The notes below the pieces were generated by a model. That model had not been told where the DNA came from. It was given only the letters and a program-made list of their open reading frames with translations, and ran no database searches. Shown here one piece after another: positions 1,168 through 47,751 of a DNA stretch of 64,000 nt. The DNA is taken from positions 256,001 to 320,000 of the forward strand of contig CAWBAT010000003.1 of assembly GCA_963786955.1 (NCBI GenBank). The letters are read 5' to 3'. The DNA is from an uncultured Acidimicrobiia bacterium. GTDB lineage: Bacteria; Acidobacteriota; Terriglobia; Versatilivoradales; Versatilivoraceae. Every line of letters begins with the position of its first letter. Position 1 is the stretch's first letter. A program made the position numbers and the translations under genes.

Positions 1168-4100
1168 ATGGATCGAAGAGAATTCCTACAAGCTGGCTTG
1201 ATATCCGCGGCTTGTCCGCTGGGAAGTCACTTCAATTGGGAGATTCCAAGCGGTTAAAAAAATTCCAAGTCGGGGAATCAATGGCAATCTTGATCTGACC
1301 AACGATGAGCTAGACTGGCGTCTCGCATGGGACGAAAATGGTTTGAAAAGCACGGGCTTCGTCAATAAACTCACGGGCCGCCCCTTCCTGTTCTCCTCAG
1401 CAGAGGAAATTTGCCTTGACATTCTCGGCCTCCAAGGTGCGAATTGAAATTCCTTGGTGGAAGTTTCGTCTTTGGTCCAGACGATCATCCTGTTGCCCGC
1501 GAGCAGGAGCAAGGATTGAAGCGAGGCTTTCATCTTAAGAACGAGCCCGATGCAAGTTGGGGAGCAACCGAGAATTTATTATTGAGAAAGCTTCGCGGCG
1601 CTGGGGAGTCACAAAGAGATTCCAGTACGATGGATACGGCTGGTTCCGTCATTGGTTTGCGCTGCCACAGGAGGGACAGGGAGAAAAAATCTTCTTCGTC
1701 CTGGGTGGATATGACTGCCAGGATTGGAACGAATACTGGATCTACGTGAATGGTGAGGAAATAGGACACAGAACTTCAGAGGGCCGATGGCGACAGCCAG
1801 GCCAGTTTGTCCTTGCCCCGGAATGCCGGGATATTCGGCACTTATTTTGGTCCTGGTGGACAAAAATCTCTTGGCCATCCGAACCCGTGGATTTGATAAA
1901 AGCTTTGGTGGTTACAGCGAGGAGATTTTACGAAAATACGTTTATAAACCCGTCCTTGTGGATCAGTATATTTCGGTCGGACAGCCTTTCATTCGGCTCA
2001 CCGATTTTCAGGTAAAGAAGTCTCTCAACAGAGCTGGAAAATCAAGTCAGAGTTCGAACTCTTCAGCCCGTCCTTGTCCGTCTTCGTTTCTGCCCGCTAC
2101 ACGCTCAACGGCCCTCTCCGGCGCAAATCATTGGTGATCAAAAACCATGGTGACAAGGATCTTCTCCTTTTGGATGTCGGTCTCGACAACTTCTCTCTTA
2201 ACGTTCCCACCTCAGAAGGAGGATCTGGGGAGCCTTTATTCATTGACGGCGAAGCGTTCTGCGCCATTGAACATCCAGCGGGATTGAACCAAGGGGGTAA
2301 AGGCAGCGTCAAACTCACACATTATCCTGGGATCCATTTGCCTTCCGGGGGCCACGTCCTCAGTCACGCAGCCTTATTGGGGGTTTCCAACACAGGTGAA
2401 ACATTCAATCATTTCACGTCTTATTTACAGGCCAACAGTCCCCGGAAGAAGAAATTCCTCTCCGTGTATGATCCCTTTGGCATGAACAACCAATGGGGAT
2501 GGTGCCCGACCCTCAATGACCTTGAAATGCTGAATGGCTTGAAGGTTTTGGAAGAATGGCAAAAGCAAGGAATCCATTTTGACTATTACGTTCCGGACTG
2601 GGGATGGTTGGATAACAGCTCGGACTTGACAAGGTTCAGACCAGAATGTTTTCCCGAAGGGCCACGTAAGGTTGTCGGATCGTGTCAACGCTCTCGGAAC
2701 CAACTTTGGATTGTGGTTTTCGGTCAGTAACGCGGCGGTATCCTGCGGGGAGTACCCGCCTGTTGAGCCCAGCCGGGTGCCGATTCCTGGAGGCCCGGCT
2801 CAGCCGGCGCCTCCGGTGCAGGCTTACAGAAATGGATATCTTGCCAGGGAGAATTTGAATGGCAACCTATGTGTGGCGTCAGAGCCTTATTTCACGATCC
2901 TCAAAAATGCGATTCTTTATCATATCCGCGAGAACAACCTCAAGCTCGTGAAATTAGACATGGGGAGCTATTACTGCAACAGTTCCGAGCACAACCATTT
3001 GCCGGGAAAATTCTCTGTTGAGAAGATGCATGATCGTCTGATCGAATTGGCCCAGCGCCGCGCGATAAGCCGAACCTGAAATTTGTATCGTATGGTATTG
3101 GGGTGTACGGTCCCCGTTTTTCGCATTATACGGGGACTTCATATTTGAATCGGGATTATTTATGGAAGGTTCGGGAACGAGCTGGGTCCCTACTTTGTAT
3201 TACCGCGACTCGGTCACCCTGAACCTGGACATGAGTACGCAGTTTGCAAAAACCATTCCTTCAATCAATAAGGACAGCCTCGGAGTATGGCTCGCAGAGA
3301 ATCGCTGGGGGAATTTCATGGCCCATGAGCGCTGGCGGGAGGCTTTGGTTATGGATCTGGGGCGGGGAAGTCTATTGTTCCCTCAACTGTGGGGGAGACA
3401 TATACCTTCTCGACCAGGAGGATCTCGTTTTTCTGGGGGAGATGCAGTCACTCTCCAGGAAGAACGAATCTCTCTTCCTCCAACGGCGGCATCATTGGGG
3501 TGATCCCTGGAAGAATGAGATCTACGGATACACTTATTTTCAGGGAACGCACGGTTTTGTGTTTCTAAGCAATGTCCACTTCATGGCGCGCAAAGTGGTG
3601 TTGCCACTTGGGCCAACTCTCGGCTTGAAAGCAGAATCAGGCAAAAGTGTCGAACTCATCAGCCATTTCCCGGAGAAGAAAAGAATGATGCGTCAAGATG
3701 GGACGGATTACCGCACAGGGGAATCCGCCGAGTTATGGTTGCGCCCGTTTGAAGTTTTGATGATCGAGGTTTTTCCCTGCGAAACCGGGGACAAGATCCC
3801 CAGGCTGCCGCACGAGACATCTATTCTTCAACAGGCGTCCAACATGGCTACTCCTCTCGCTCTTCATCGGCTCGCTCAGGAAGAGGATTGGATGCGGATG
3901 GAGTTTGCCGATGCAAAGCGATTTGAGGCCCAAGGGAAGAGAAAGAAGGTCTTTTCATTTGCAACCGAGTTTGATTCACTGGAAGGGAAACAGGCCGTAC
4001 TGGCAATCTCCATCCGATTGAGGGCGGGGATGGAAGACTGGCGTTATGCGCCTTCCGTTGCCGAAATCGTCCAGGTCGTGGCGCGACTGGGCAACCAAAC

Positions 4101-4345
4101 TGCTCCATCTCATTCCCGTTCCAGATGCGAGACAGTTTGGCAATACTCAAAGCGCCGGGGGGTCTTGGGTGGTCTATAAATGCAGGTTGAGTCTGCAGGC
4201 AGTTCCTTCGGAGTTTCGGTTCGCCGTTCACTGTTACTTGCCGGAGCATGTCGTTCCGGAGATCGAAGGCTGGTTCCTGAGCCAGTGGTGGGAGGAGCGA
4301 AGTCGGCCCGTAGCGGAAGGTTTTTACGCAGATAGCCCTTCCTAG
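1168..4345 (+). CDS. Large Tat-exported glycoside hydrolase-like protein (GH36/alpha-galactosidase-like TIM barrel), split by several frameshifts
   Basis: ATG at 1168 follows GGAGG and gives MDRREFLQAG (twin-arginine signal). Consecutive overlapping + ORFs (1557, 1787, 2074, 2672, 3162, 3244, 4046) carry FDYYVPDWGW and LVKLD, resembling the GH27/36 D-x-GW and K-x-D motifs. Confidence 0.55.
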
Positions 4346-42700: not shown

Positions 42701-43178
42701 GCTGGATAGTGCCTTGGGCGCGGTCACCGAATTGATCAATAGCATTGCCATGATCTTGCTTTACTTTGTGTTTGCGGATCGACTGTCTGCCAGTTGGTCA
42801 CGAAAGAAGCTGGTAGTTTTTTTCTTTTTCCTGATTTTGGGATTGTCTCTGGCGGGCTTGCAGGAAATTGAGAGCATCAAGTACTGGGCCTTTTCTGGTC
42901 TCCTCTCAGGATTATTGATGTGGGGAGCTTACGTTCTGGTCTTCCGATTTGGGCTGCTCAGCCTGGCTTTTTCAGTCGGGACGGTGATCGTTCTCGGAGC
43001 CATCAAGCAAGCAGTCTACCATCCATTCCCTCATGCAGTCCTAGCAGGCCTTGTGCAAATCATAACCGTTGGCGTGTTGAGCTACTATTGTGTCAAAAAA
43101 CTGGAAGGCCAGGGCAGCTCAACGAGGTGTCTGATTGAGCATCGGGTGGCGCACCCATTAGAAGGCCTTTGTCAATAG
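39787..43178 (+). CDS. Large membrane protein with a CPBP (Abi/CAAX type II) intramembrane metalloprotease domain (frameshift ~42230)
   Basis: WEECLFR, FGAGH and SHFVFD motifs with many TM segments. The last codons run into the IS end. Confidence 0.85.
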
Positions 43179-44825
43179 AACAAACTACCCCTTGAGTGCG
43201 ACGTAGACTTTTTTGCAAAGGCTCCCTTGCCAGATTCCTTTCTCGATCTTCAGAGCTAGCGGCTCATCGAGGACCGTACGCTGTCTACCGGCGGCCTTAG
43301 CTGGGTCTACGGGCTAAATTCCTTAGCTTTCTCCAGCCATGATTCGAACTGGAGAAGGCGGAAGGATCTCGGCCGAGTTTTTGAACCACGCACCCAGGGT
43401 TTTCTTGCTTGAGGATCGGCTCGTATCGAGTCCGTCCATGCACCCATCAGGATCAAGGCTATCGAGGACCATTGGCCTCATTAGCCCCTGGCGCCGTGCG
43501 GCGCCCCAGAAAATCGTTGGTACCAGACCGTGTCCAATGGGCGTGACCGGGTCACAGAATCGGTGGTTCTCCAAGCCAACCGGCTTGGACCAGCGCCGGG
43601 CAGGCTCGCGGTCTGGGCGTGCTCGAAAACATCAGCCTATATCGGGACGGGGACTGTGTCCAATCAGACAGCTGGATTTACACCAGCGCCACCCAAGGCT
43701 CACAGCCCCCACCCAGCTTTAGCTGCTGAACAAGCGGGTCGGTTCAAACCGCACCTGATCTCGCAGCACATAATAACAGGCCCGCGCCAGCTTGTGAGCC
43801 AGGGCCTTAATTGCCAGCGTCCGATTGACGGCGGCTGTTTTCCGTTCCACAAATCGTCGGGCTGACCCATACGACCGGGCCGCGTGGGTCGCTGCCTCCA
43901 CAAAGGCCCAGGCCAGATACCGGTTGCCGTTATGGCGGTTGTTCTCCCCTTTCTTCTTCTGGTTGCTCAACCGGGTGCTGGCGACACAGCGGCAGTAAGA
44001 GGCGTAATCACCGACTTGAGGGAATCGCCCGATGTCGCCGGTCTCCAGCCAGATGGTCAGGGCGAGAATTGGTCCCACCCCATAGACACTTTGCAACAAC
44101 TCAAAGGAGGCTTCCGGCTTGGCCTGGCTCTTGAGCTGTTTCTCAATGACCGCAATCTGTTTGTCCAGAGCCTGGATCACCAGCAGCGAACTCTCCACCG
44201 CCAGCCTCCGTTCCCGGTCGGGAAACAACTCCCGAACCTCGGCGACACTCAGCTGCCGAATCGGGGTGTCGGGACTGCGCCGTCCCTGGTGGCGACTCAA
44301 CAGATTGTTGACGTGCAATAACTGACTGGTGCATTGCCTCACCAGAAAACTGCGTTGTCGCAACAGATCTCTCAGTGGCCGCTGCCCAGCCGGGTAAATG
44401 TAGCCGGTTGGCAAAAGCTTCAGCCGCAGCATCTCCCCCAGCCAGCGCGCATCTGACTTGTCGTCACTGTACTTGAGCCCCTGGTACTGCTGCATCGCAT
44501 TCGGGTTGGCCAGCTTCACCGAGTAGCCCGCTTCCTTCAGTCCATCCACCAACCAGTACCAGTTGTAGGTCGACTCCACGGCCAGCTCCACAATCTGCTC
44601 TCGATACGGCTCTAGTTGCTCTAGCACCACCATCATCTCATTGGGCAACCGACACCGATGCACCACGATTCCTCCTTCGTCCAGCAGCACCAGATAACTG
44701 TTGTTGGCATGCAGATCGATTCCGCCATATAGTTTCATCAGAGGTCTCCTTTCGGGATTAAGTTCGGTACTTAACCCTGAGTCTATCCCATTCGGATAGA
44801 CTCAGGAGGCCTTCTAGATGATTAT
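43158..44825 (-). mobile_element. IS110-family (IS1111-like) insertion sequence, copy A, ~1668 bp
   Basis: Reverse complement of 45454-47121 with one noticed substitution. Subterminal IR TAGAAGGCCT and a long 3' non-coding end. Confidence 0.93.
43719..44738 (-). CDS. IS110-family DEDD transposase/recombinase
   Basis: GIDLH, VEST, KYSDDKSDA, SVYGVG, GNRYL. Confidence 0.96.
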   Translation of the reverse strand: MKLYGGIDLHANNSYLVLLDEGGIVVHRCRLPNEMMVVLEQLEPYREQIVELAVESTYNWYWLVDGLKEAGYSVKLANPNAMQQYQGLKYSDDKSDARWLGEMLRLKLLPTGYIYPAGQRPLRDLLRQRSFLVRQCTSQLLHVNNLLSRHQGRRSPDTPIRQLSVAEVRELFPDRERRLAVESSLLVIQALDKQIAVIEKQLKSQAKPEASFELLQSVYGVGPILALTIWLETGDIGRFPQVGDYASYCRCVASTRLSNQKKKGENNRHNGNRYLAWAFVEAATHAARSYGSARRFVERKTAAVNRTLAIKALAHKLARACYYVLRDQVRFEPTRLFSS

Positions 44826-45070
44826 CAGACATGCGCAGTGTGCATGTCTGCGAGGAGAAAGAATGGTCATGGGTGCGCCACCCGGCGATTTCGGGAGTCA
44901 TCTACTATTGTTTTCTGCTATTGCCTGCTCCGAGGTTCTGGGCCCACTGGCAATTCTGGGGGGGCTTGTTATCTTTGTGCCTGTTGGAATATGTAAACTG
45001 CGTGGACGCAGACGTAGCAGGTAGCGCCGAGTTGATTTTCAACTCTGCGGCTATTTGACACCGGAGAGGA

Positions 45071-45195: not shown

Positions 45196-45540
45196 CCATG
45201 CTCTGCGGGAAAATGGGGGGGCCGAGACCTGGAAAGCTGGTAGCCAAGATTGACGCGCTTTTTGCGGCTATCGGGGGCTTGTACTCAGGTTATTCGCTGT
45301 CCACGATTGACCGGCATAACGTGCCGGTCAATCGTGGCTACCCATATTCTATGCCTCTACTAACTGTAAACCCGAGGACTCCTGCATCAGCTGAAGAGCC
45401 ACTTTGTTGTTGAAACATTTATCTCACGCAGACATGCGCAAACCACATGTCTGATAATCATCTAGAAGGCCTCCTGAGTCTATCCGAATGGGATAGACTC
45501 AGGGTTAAGTACCGAACTTAATCCCGAAAGGAGACCTCTG

Positions 45541-46560
45541 ATGAAACTATATGGCGGAATCGATCTGCATGCCAACAACAGTTATCTGGTGCTGCTGGAC
45601 GAAGGAGGAATCGTGGTGCATCGGTGTCGGTTGCCCAATGAGATGATGGTGGTGCTAGAGCAACTAGAGCCGTATCGAGAGCAGATTGTGGAGCTGGCCG
45701 TGGAGTCGACCTACAACTGGTACTGGTTGGTGGATGGACTGAAGGAAGCGGGCTACTCGGTGAAGCTGGCCAACCCGAATGCGATGCAGCAGTACCAGGG
45801 GCTCAAGTACAGTGACGACAAGTCAGATGCGCGCTGGCTGGGGGAGATGCTGCGGCTGAAGCTTTTGCCAACCGGCTACATTTACCCGGCTGGGCAGCGG
45901 CCACTGAGAGATCTGTTGCGACAACGCAGTTTTCTGGTGAGGCAATGCACCAGTCAGTTATTGCACGTCAACAATCTGTTGAGTCGCCACCAGGGACGGC
46001 GCAGTCCCGACACCCCGATTCGGCAGCTGAGTGTCGCCGAGGTTCGGGAGTTGTTTCCCGACCGGGAACGGAGGCTGGCGGTGGAGAGTTCGCTGCTGGT
46101 GATCCAGGCTCTGGACAAACAGATTGCGGTCATTGAGAAACAGCTCAAGAGCCAGGCCAAGCCGGAAGCCTCCTTTGAGTTGTTGCAAAGTGTCTATGGG
46201 GTGGGACCAATTCTCGCCCTGACCATCTGGCTGGAGACCGGCGACATCGGGCGATTCCCTCAAGTCGGTGATTACGCCTCTTACTGCCGCTGTGTCGCCA
46301 GCACCCGGTTGAGCAACCAGAAGAAGAAAGGGGAGAACAACCGCCATAACGGCAACCGGTATCTGGCCTGGGCCTTTGTGGAGGCAGCGACCCACGCGGC
46401 CCGGTCGTATGGGTCAGCCCGACGATTTGTGGAACGGAAAACAGCCGCCGTCAATCGGACGCTGGCAATTAAGGCCCTGGCTCACAAGCTGGCGCGGGCC
46501 TGTTATTATGTGCTGCGAGATCAGGTGCGGTTTGAACCGACCCGCTTGTTCAGCAGCTAA
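45541..46560 (+). CDS. IS110-family DEDD transposase/recombinase
   Basis: Protein identical to 43719..44738; GGAG RBS. Confidence 0.96.
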   Translation: MKLYGGIDLHANNSYLVLLDEGGIVVHRCRLPNEMMVVLEQLEPYREQIVELAVESTYNWYWLVDGLKEAGYSVKLANPNAMQQYQGLKYSDDKSDARWLGEMLRLKLLPTGYIYPAGQRPLRDLLRQRSFLVRQCTSQLLHVNNLLSRHQGRRSPDTPIRQLSVAEVRELFPDRERRLAVESSLLVIQALDKQIAVIEKQLKSQAKPEASFELLQSVYGVGPILALTIWLETGDIGRFPQVGDYASYCRCVASTRLSNQKKKGENNRHNGNRYLAWAFVEAATHAARSYGSARRFVERKTAAVNRTLAIKALAHKLARACYYVLRDQVRFEPTRLFSS

Positions 46561-47110
46561 AGCTGGGTGGGGGCTGTGAGCCTTGGGTGGCGCTGGTGTA
46601 AATCCAGCTGTCTGATTGGACACAGTCCCCGTCCCGATATAGGCTGATGTTTTCGAGCACGCCCAGACCGCGAGCCTGCCCGGCGCTGGTCCAAGCCGGT
46701 TGGCTTGGAGAACCACCGATTCTGTGACCCGGTCACGCCCATTGGACACGGTCTGGTACCAACGATTTTCTGGGGCGCCGCACGGCGCCAGGGGCTAATG
46801 AGGCCAATGGTCCTCGATAGCCTTGATCCTGATGGGTGCATGGACGGACTCGATACGAGCCGATCCTCAAGCAAGAAAACCCTGGGTGCGTGGTTCAAAA
46901 ACTCGGCCGGGATCCTTCCGCCTTCTCCAGTTCGAATCATGGCTGGAGAAAGCTAAGGAATTTAGCCCGTAGACCCAGCTAAGGCCGCCGGTAGACAGCG
47001 TACGGTCCTCGATGAGCCGCTAGCTCTGAAGATCGAGAAAGGAATCTGGCAAGGGAGCCTTTGCAAAAAAGTCTACGTCGCACTCAAGGGGTAGTTTGTT
47101 CTATTGACAA
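46561..47110 (+). ncRNA. Putative bridge/seek RNA region of IS copy B (mirror copy at 43169-43718 on the minus strand)
   Basis: Structured non-coding 3' end. The loop at 46569-46630 holds GGGTGGCGC and TGTCTG, which match the two flanks of the insertion site. Confidence 0.7.
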
Positions 47111-47175
47111 AGGCCTTCTAATGGGTGCGCCACCCGAGATTTACGGGAACACCAATCTTCAAATATGATAAGGCT

Positions 47176-47751
47176 TCATTTTCGACCAGCAGCGTCAATG
47201 CTATTGGTTGGATCTGCTCCCTCCAAGTGAAACATCGGCGGTCGGTCCATAGGTCGAAGGGACATCCTTCTCCAGCAGCCGCAAGTAAACCGTGAGTTGC
47301 GTTCGATGATGGGCTGTATGCAGGACTCGCGCCAGAAGATCCAAATTCTTTCCCTTTCCACATCAAAAAAACAAACTTTCTCGAGCCACCAAGGTTCTTC
47401 CTTAGCGGCGAGAAAATTCAATCGTGGCACTGCCAACTCCACCAGGCGGGAAGCAAAATCTCCCGGCGTTTCCTGGGCGAGTAGGATCTGAGCGGGAGCA
47501 GGTTCTGGAGAGTCTAAAAACTCTCCAAAAAATCGCCGCTCTGAGAGGAGTTGATGTTTCAGGATCTCGAGCACACTGCTGGATCGTGGATGTGGCTTAA
47601 AACTCAAATCATCTAAGGTGAACTTTCCCCAAACCGAGGCGACTTTATTTGTCTCACTGACATAGGTGTCCAGAAGATGCTGGAATTGCGGGGAAATGGC
47701 TGGGGGAATCTTCGAATCTGGAATTGAAATGGTGGAGTAACCCATAGACAT
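47176..47751 (-). CDS. DinB-family protein (frameshift ~47330)
   Basis: FKPHPRS..ILKHQLLSERRFF. An alternative frame gives LHTAHHRTQLTVYLRLL. Confidence 0.8.
   Translation of the reverse strand: MSMGYSTISIPDSKIPPAISPQFQHLLDTYVSETNKVASVWGKFTLDDLSFKPHPRSSSVLEILKHQLLSERRFFGEFLDSPEPAPAQILLAQETPGDFASRLVELAVPRLNFLAAKEEPWWLEKVCFFDVERERIWIFWRESCIQPIIERNSRFTCGCWRRMSLRPMDRPPMFHLEGADPTNSIDAAGRK

Follow-up and report, generated by a model that had tools for sequence, protein, structure and literature searches.

RNA-guided recombinases of the IS110/IS1111 type are under development as genome-editing tools and, to our knowledge, almost all mechanistic work on them has dealt with the two-loop RNA of IS621. 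The insertion sequence described here lies in a 64,000-nucleotide stretch of DNA from an uncultured sediment bacterium that was analysed as a whole (hereafter the window, to which all coordinates given without a locus name refer). Downstream of its transposase gene, it encodes a first stem-loop that reads like a guide for the insertion site and a second one built on the same scaffold with different variable parts. An earlier note on this DNA took the second loop for a duplicated target loop, belonging either to a multi-guide RNA or to a relic of retargeting. The question raised by this locus is what such a second loop is for.

Results

An IS1111-type element inserted in REP sequences

At positions 45454-47127, the plus strand of the window carries an insertion sequence of the IS1111 type, which is 1674 bp long when one TG core is counted at its right end. 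This copy (copy 2) stands head to head with an inverted one on the minus strand (copy 1, 43152-44825, coordinates mirrored from those of copy 2), and a third copy is found on another contig of the genome, all three being identical. The ends were set at 45454 and 47127 because the sequences of the three copies part outside these limits. Including the shared flank, copies 1 and 2 form a 1711-nt inverted repeat (43142-44852 and 45427-47137), the arms of which are 574 nt apart, with 628 bp between the ends of the elements themselves. Each of the two copies sits in its own REP, and recombination between them would invert the intervening segment.

The transposase gene (45541-46560, plus strand) encodes a DEDD (RuvC-like) protein of 339 aa with an IS110-type C-terminal domain (PF01548, 1.4e-13; PF02371, 1.5e-13). 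IS1111 transposases are reported to have a C-terminal GL-P----S/T-G motif (PMC11187229); at the expected place, the translation of the present protein reads CRCVASTRLSN (46240-46290, residues about 235-250). The segment NQKKKGEN, which follows it directly, served as one of the search patterns for relatives, and 542 of the 604 pattern-matched stretches encoded one. The relatives used below are 79 loci with transposases 47-70% identical, obtained from a scan that took one genome per species; element ends could be parsed in 58 loci, 47 of which had well-matched subterminal repeats and a full non-coding region. They share the ends of the window element: their left flank closes with (C/T)TG, the element starts with ATAATCATC-TAG and ends with CTAATGGG-TG, and the right flank starts with ACCC in most cases. 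Nearly all of them display three modules in the same order downstream of the gene. Among the plasmid matches, the nearest named label was 'ISGsu4 family' at 49% identity, and a search of E. coli genomes with a typical relative, aiming at ISEc11, returned no match.

The element bears marks of the IS1111 group, among them subterminal inverted repeats and a TTGACA hexamer placed 17 nt from a GATAAT once the ends are joined. The repeats, identified by script, are 10 nt long (45463-45472 on the plus strand, partner 47111-47120) and are located 9 nt and 7 nt from the ends of the element, in line with the 7-17 bp expected for the group. The -35 hexamer TTGACA of the predicted circle-junction promoter lies on the plus strand at 47104-47109, and the GATAAT is composed of the core G and positions 45454-45458, being formed only by end joining; at the place of the -35 hexamer, TGAC is conserved in 43 of 47 aligned relatives. 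In addition, the non-coding region is long on the 3' side of the gene, with 567 nt between the stop codon and the right end versus 87 nt upstream of the gene. Finally, insertion is site- and orientation-specific without target duplication, since all three copies occupy the same position in the same orientation in one type of REP, with a single shared TG per junction. The element is thus a further member of the IS1111-type RNA-guided insertion sequences. An Rfam scan of 45300-47300 (E up to 1) gave no match.

The left half of the target is a REP palindrome (45428-45453, plus strand, TG core at 45452-45453), present to the left of all three copies as GCAGACATGC-loop-GCATGTCTG, the loop differing from copy to copy. 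The right half, CGCCACCC (47128-47135, plus strand, TG core at 47126-47127), is identical beside all three. As the genome also contains many uninterrupted copies of the same palindrome running straight into CGCC, the flanks of the copies and these intact palindromes together define the target as ...CATGTC-TG-CGCCACCC, with the TG core at both junctions. At 44869-44884, 17 nt outside the palindrome of copy 1, there is an isolated stretch of 16 nt that repeats the final 7 nt of the right end together with the right half of the target. Its likeness to the right junction of copy 2 extends into the flank (44869-44896 versus 47121-47148, 28 nt, 82%), and it may have been left as a scar by a lost copy or may belong to a larger repeat. 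Besides, genome G000 harbours an abundant REP family, GAAGACATGC-loop-GCATGTCTTC followed by GCCACCC (e.g. C4:96421 and C5:708216), in which most copies have TT where the element needs its TG core; this may limit the number of usable REP sites.

Loop 1 changes with the target

All motifs that the earlier note had listed for its two modules are present within 1 nt of where it placed them, and the non-coding region folds into two separate stem-loop modules at these positions. The first one, loop 1 (46564-46636, plus strand), has an outer stem at 46570-46578/46621-46629 that the minimum-energy fold extends to 46564-46578/46621-46636. Inside this stem, a GAGCCT (46578-46583) is followed by the 5' guide GGGTGGCGC (46585-46593), an inner hairpin (46592-46608), the 3' guide TGTCTG (46609-46614) and ATTGGACAC (46615-46623). 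The 5' guide is the reverse complement of 47127-47135, its pairing partner being the top strand of the right flank together with the core G. The right flank proper is CGCCACCC after the TG core, and the G that the earlier note had counted with it is the core G. The 3' guide is identical to 45448-45453, i.e. the left flank plus the core, and the two bases that come after the core in the loop (AU, 46615-46616) are the first two bases of the left end of the element. This strand order is that of IS1111 seekRNAs (PMC11187229).

The guides of loop 1 also vary in step with the flanks of the relatives. In 40 loci, agreement with right-flank positions 5-10 was 2.83 for cognate versus 1.66 for non-cognate pairs, while agreement with the left-flank positions was 3.49 versus 2.25, a value reached in none of 5000 permutations (here as below, the permutation tests ignore the relatedness of the sequences). 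In contigs from other sediments bearing relatives 90-95% identical, compensatory changes were found in the outer stem at 46569/46630 and 46575/46624. Loop 1 therefore combines the features by which target-binding loops of seekRNAs and bridge RNAs are recognized and, judged by sequence match, fold and guide-flank covariation, module 1 is the target-binding loop, as the earlier note had proposed. In the genome, the 14-nt site specified by loop 1 has 110 near matches (two mismatches at most), and the scan found no perfect unoccupied one.

Loop 2 is a conserved paralogue of loop 1

The second module, loop 2 (46663-46756, plus strand), is enclosed by an outer stem (46663-46670/46749-46756) and contains, in succession, GAGCCT (46672-46677), GGCGCTGGT (46682-46690), an inner hairpin (46686-46715), an extra hairpin (about 46722-46737) and ATTGGACAC (46741-46749). 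It can be described as a three-way junction since the would-be 3' guide is for the most part an arm of the extra hairpin. The two loops have three collinear blocks in common, 24 nt in total, a level attained by one of 2000 mononucleotide shuffles of module 2; a plain local alignment of the modules was weakly significant (6 of 500 shuffles).

A covariance model of loop 2 (R1), built from 33 relatives, matches 71 of the 79 loci and both copies in the window, and cross-matches loop 1 in two loci. In the outer stem, 93.9% of cells are paired, compared with 75.0% for shuffled sequences (a value as high was seen in none of 500) and 30-42% after sliding of the partners, and 9 of 11 pairs have changes on both sides. 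The stem of the extra hairpin changes in step as well (3.96 cognate versus 3.37 non-cognate, 0 of 3000 permutations as high). Moreover, the bases conserved in loop 2 are those of loop 1, namely GAGCC, the (G)GGUUGG...CCA inner hairpin, yUG and UUGGAC. According to this comparative evidence, loop 2 arose from the same ancestor as loop 1 long ago and has been conserved since.

These data bear on the view that module 2 is a functionless, decaying duplicate left behind by retargeting. Its distal guides match nothing that was found, loop 1 alone is enough for ISEc11 (PMC11187229), and the element of locus L054 (Methylomicrobium) lost module 2 by a clean deletion. Against this, the retention of module 2 in 71 of 79 relatives spanning 47-70% transposase identity and the covariation of its outer stem rule out a recent duplication; the compensatory changes and the conserved scaffold bases speak in the same sense, as does a module 2 look-alike recognized by eye in two elements with transposases 31-34% identical, and the L054 element without loop 2 exists as a single full copy only. 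We hold a decaying relic to be very improbable.

Some relatives depart from the common arrangement. In L054 (L054:3511-3760), the deletion removed the inside of loop 2 between short repeats and spared loops 1 and 3; next to the full copy, the genome (G001) has several solo fragments, each starting within the non-coding region and extending to the right end. In L067 (Arsukibacterium), where the transposase match ends at 3207, the sequence directly after it joins the 5' half of loop 1 to the 3' half of loop 2; the loop 2 model has no match there, and the sister locus L066 differs. This chimera indicates recombination between paralogous loops. In L047 (Colwellia), two equal-scoring matches to loop 3 (3753-3853 and 4056-4156, 303 nt apart) point to a tandem duplication in the non-coding region.

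Loop 2 follows only the bases next to the core

According to the earlier note, the variable parts of module 2 match neither the target nor the donor junction. This is correct for the distal parts, but the core-proximal ones, GGCG on the 5' side and UCUG on the 3' side, match TCTG/CGCC of the target, and this is all that the window loop 2 matches of it. The same tendency is seen in the relatives, where the target is tracked only by the bases nearest the core, namely yUG and, on the 5' side, about 4 nt. On the 5' side, they follow the first bases of the right flank, which are ACCC in most relatives, CGCC in the window and L016, CGT in L007, CA in L082 and ACA in L060/L063; the agreement breaks down in L033 and L062. 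On the other side, yUG follows the last flank base and the core: within one close clade, loop 2 has U where the flank has T (L038, L041) and C where the flank has C (L028, L030, L042). This agreement between loop 2 and the flanks could stem from gene conversion with loop 1, a process that is conceivable because L067 is a natural loop 1/loop 2 chimera.

Further from the core, loop 2 shows no relation with right-flank positions 5-10 (1.48 cognate versus 1.43 non-cognate), while its left side gave 2.23 versus 1.90 (permutation p 0.034, uncorrected for relatedness). Its distal 5' strand is conserved across lineages with different targets. A conserved partner of the loop 2 5' strand was sought in each element and its flanks, and none recurred except the flank in L019 and L031. 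The 5' strand pairs weakly with the 3' junction of its own loop (4.07 versus 3.77, permutation p 0.0175), this pairing being strong only in a few lineages.

These observations also weigh on the possibility raised in the earlier note that module 2 is a second programmable target loop, which would direct a multi-guide RNA to a second kind of site. Such a role would agree with the scaffold common to both loops, with two distant elements in which the guides of the second loop resemble those of loop 1, and with three loci where the loop 2 guide fits the flank at least as well as loop 1 does (L058 on the left; L019 and L031 on the right, 8 nt each). However, the genome has neither a site within one mismatch of the 15-nt site that loop 2 would specify nor a repeat family of this kind, the hits of the genome scan being at chance level, and the insertions matching module 2 that the earlier note had suggested looking for are missing from this genome, its three copies being all in sites of the module 1 type. 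Furthermore, the would-be 3' guide is mostly a hairpin arm, the distal positions ignore the flanks, and the distal 5' strand remains the same where targets differ. A second programmable target is for these reasons quite unlikely in our view.

Another candidate function is ordinary donor binding, by a loop with the multi-loop shape that has been predicted for IS1111 elements. Module 2 indeed comes next after the target loop, like the second loop in the bridge RNA of IS621; it has a multi-loop shape, as predicted for many IS1111 members (PMC11208160); and window positions 46736-46746, on its 3' side, can form 11 bp, two of them G-U, with the top strand of the right end, as a donor guide would. 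This 3' junction was rejected as a donor guide, since 29 non-redundant relatives pair with the nearly invariant right end at only 2.97 of 6 positions, i.e. at chance level, and the window alone reaches 6 of 6. Strands complementary to the right and left ends were thus not found in module 2; its 5' strand matches the flank rather than the left end, and far better donor matches, which covary with the ends, occur in loop 3. It is therefore unlikely that module 2 serves as the donor loop, and its description as a duplicated target-type loop is borne out.

A third loop with donor matches

A third module that does not appear in the earlier note was identified at 46757-46851 on the plus strand. This loop 3 is a candidate donor-binding loop on account of its donor matches, of a second covariance model (R2) and of distant elements. 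R2 matches 72 of the 79 relatives and begins where loop 2 ends. The module is made up of single-stranded bases on the 5' side, a covarying hairpin, a second stem around a variable hairpin and a conserved 3' stretch. The 5' strand (46761-46769) is complementary to the beginning of the left end together with the core G. The 3' strand (46828-46838) reads in the same sense as the terminus of the right end with its core, and the base at 46839 matches the first base of the flank.

Among 33 loci, the 3' strand agrees with the right end and two flank bases at 12 of 14 positions on average. Where the right end carries a G-to-A change (..TGAGTG in L019, L062 and L074), loop 3 has the same change in all three cases. 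Likewise, when the flank starts with C (window, L007, L016 and L082), loop 3 has a C after the core, L062 being the exception. The 5' strand agrees with the left end at 5.94 of 9 positions versus 3.83 for shuffles, with little covariation (5.94 cognate versus 5.62 non-cognate). Loop 3 thus contains strands complementary to the element ends that change with them, the covariation with the left end being weak. A closing stem UACC/GGUG was considered for loop 3 and rejected, as the predicted pairing breaks in the right-end variants.

In its geometry, loop 3 mirrors loop 1, the 5' strand corresponding to the top strand to the right of the core and the 3' strand to the bottom strand to its left. In both loops, the bases after the core match the partner DNA, i.e. 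the left end for loop 1 and the right flank for loop 3. By analogy, these post-core matches are the handshake principle described for IS621 by Hiraizumi et al. 2026 (PMC13626964).

More distant elements on Vibrio and Alteromonas plasmids (L133:2216-2560 and L134:2216-2560; transposases 31-34% identical) have a comparable layout when read by eye. Two loop-1-like modules, with guides that resemble each other, are followed by a copy of the element's own right end: this end is ..CATATG-TG with flank TT, and the internal copy reads ..ATATGUG-UU. The models of loops 2 and 3 gave no matches on these two elements, and single-sequence folds of them were no better than shuffles.

RNA-library contigs and a second promoter-like site

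Contigs from three RNA libraries of three studies cover 46515-46776, 46210-46769 and 46435-46731, although presence in such libraries does not prove transcription. The 3' end of the gene, loop 1 and loop 2 fall within this cover, in contigs that show no ends, strand or level; 46777-46809 has no cover. The contigs of two studies stop at 46769 and 46776 while a DNA contig continues, which is a weak hint at most. A promoter-like site was noticed inside the end of the transposase gene (46481-46509), with CTCACA, a 17-nt spacing and TATTAT preceded by TG; it could allow an integrated copy to produce the guide RNA. One of the RNA-library contigs starts at 46515, just past this site.

Discussion

The element has three paralogous loops in its 3' non-coding region, and we consider it probable that the first serves the target, that the second is a conserved target-like copy of it and that the third serves donor recognition. 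Loop 1 would pick the site, its 5' strand pairing with the top strand of the right half while its 3' strand equals the left half plus the TG core. Loop 3, presumed to act as RNA, would read the ends and hold them once joined, its 3' strand repeating the terminus of the right end together with the core and the first bases of the flank, and its 5' strand being complementary to the start of the left end. Between them, loop 2 joins the scaffold of loop 1 (GAGCC, the YUGG...CCA inner hairpin, UUGGAC and the closing stem) to a complementarity restricted to the central 8-9 bp of the target, and would carry neither donor guides nor a second programmable target. Having a scaffold of the recombinase type, it may bind the protein, a recombinase dimer, and act as an auxiliary, structural or excision-related module. 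In doing so, it may touch only the centre of target-type DNA, either at a new site or in the flanks of the integrated copy during excision.

We regard as possible, with low confidence, that loop 2 is a working second target-type loop in a three-loop guide RNA, in which loop 1 supplies long and fast-evolving guides, loop 2 core-proximal pairing and the third loop the reading of the ends. A loop 2 of this kind might hold the flanks of the integrated copy during excision. If true, the three-loop guide would take the architecture of recombinase RNAs beyond the two loops of the bridge RNA.

The favoured reading, with loop 2 as a conserved target-like copy between a target loop and a donor loop, can be set against the published systems. 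As in the IS1111 seekRNA elements ISEc11, ISPa11 and ISKpn4 (PMC11187229), the non-coding RNA is located 3' of a DEDD transposase of roughly 340 aa, subterminal inverted repeats are present, and the match to the top strand stands 5' of the match to the bottom strand, the two overlapping at the insertion point. As for ISPa11, the target is a REP. In contrast, the transposases are not close to those of ISEc11, ISPa11 and ISKpn4, and the non-coding region is longer here (567 nt) with three loops that share a scaffold. The RNAs of these three elements measure 82 nt and roughly 150 nt. According to Siddiquee et al. 2024 (PMC11187229), a short seekRNA consisting of loop 1 alone sufficed for an ISEc11 mini-element and only two sizes of transposase-bound RNA were seen; the authors describe the role of the long form as not established. 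The long seekRNA has a second stem-loop that can be likened to loop 2, and loop 2 is probably its counterpart, as mapped by position only. Two bound RNA sizes give no support for a loop 3 RNA in the elements of Siddiquee et al., which are not close relatives of the present one. As loop 1 alone supports the movement of the ISEc11 mini-element, loops 2 and 3 may be auxiliary under over-expression.

For IS1111 elements, donor-binding nucleotides have been predicted in a multi-loop (Durrant et al. 2024, PMC11208160), and loop 3 as donor loop fits this prediction by analogy. The supplements of that paper mention IS1111 examples in protein alignments only, and our literature search found no later mechanistic study specific to IS1111. 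Compared with the bridge RNA of IS621 (PMC11208160, PMC13626964), the RNA described here is similar in having separate target and donor loops that each devote one strand to each DNA strand, a core dinucleotide common to both ends, short handshake matches beside the core (from loop 1 to the left end and from loop 3 to the right flank) and a promoter that forms at the circle junction, predicted in our case. It differs in several respects. The RNA is encoded 3' of the gene, its loops have the opposite strand order, TG stands in place of CT as the core, and the subterminal repeats are long. Besides, the donor loop is multi-branched, and an extra target-like loop is inserted between the target and donor loops.

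In conclusion, across this locus and its 79 relatives, loop 1 tracks the target and loop 3 the ends, whereas the conserved middle loop tracks only the bases adjacent to the core. The point of interest is the function of this middle loop, and the comparative picture names the bases to mutate in order to find its role. It also calls for caution when such systems are reprogrammed, as the second loop of an IS1111 RNA need not be the donor loop.
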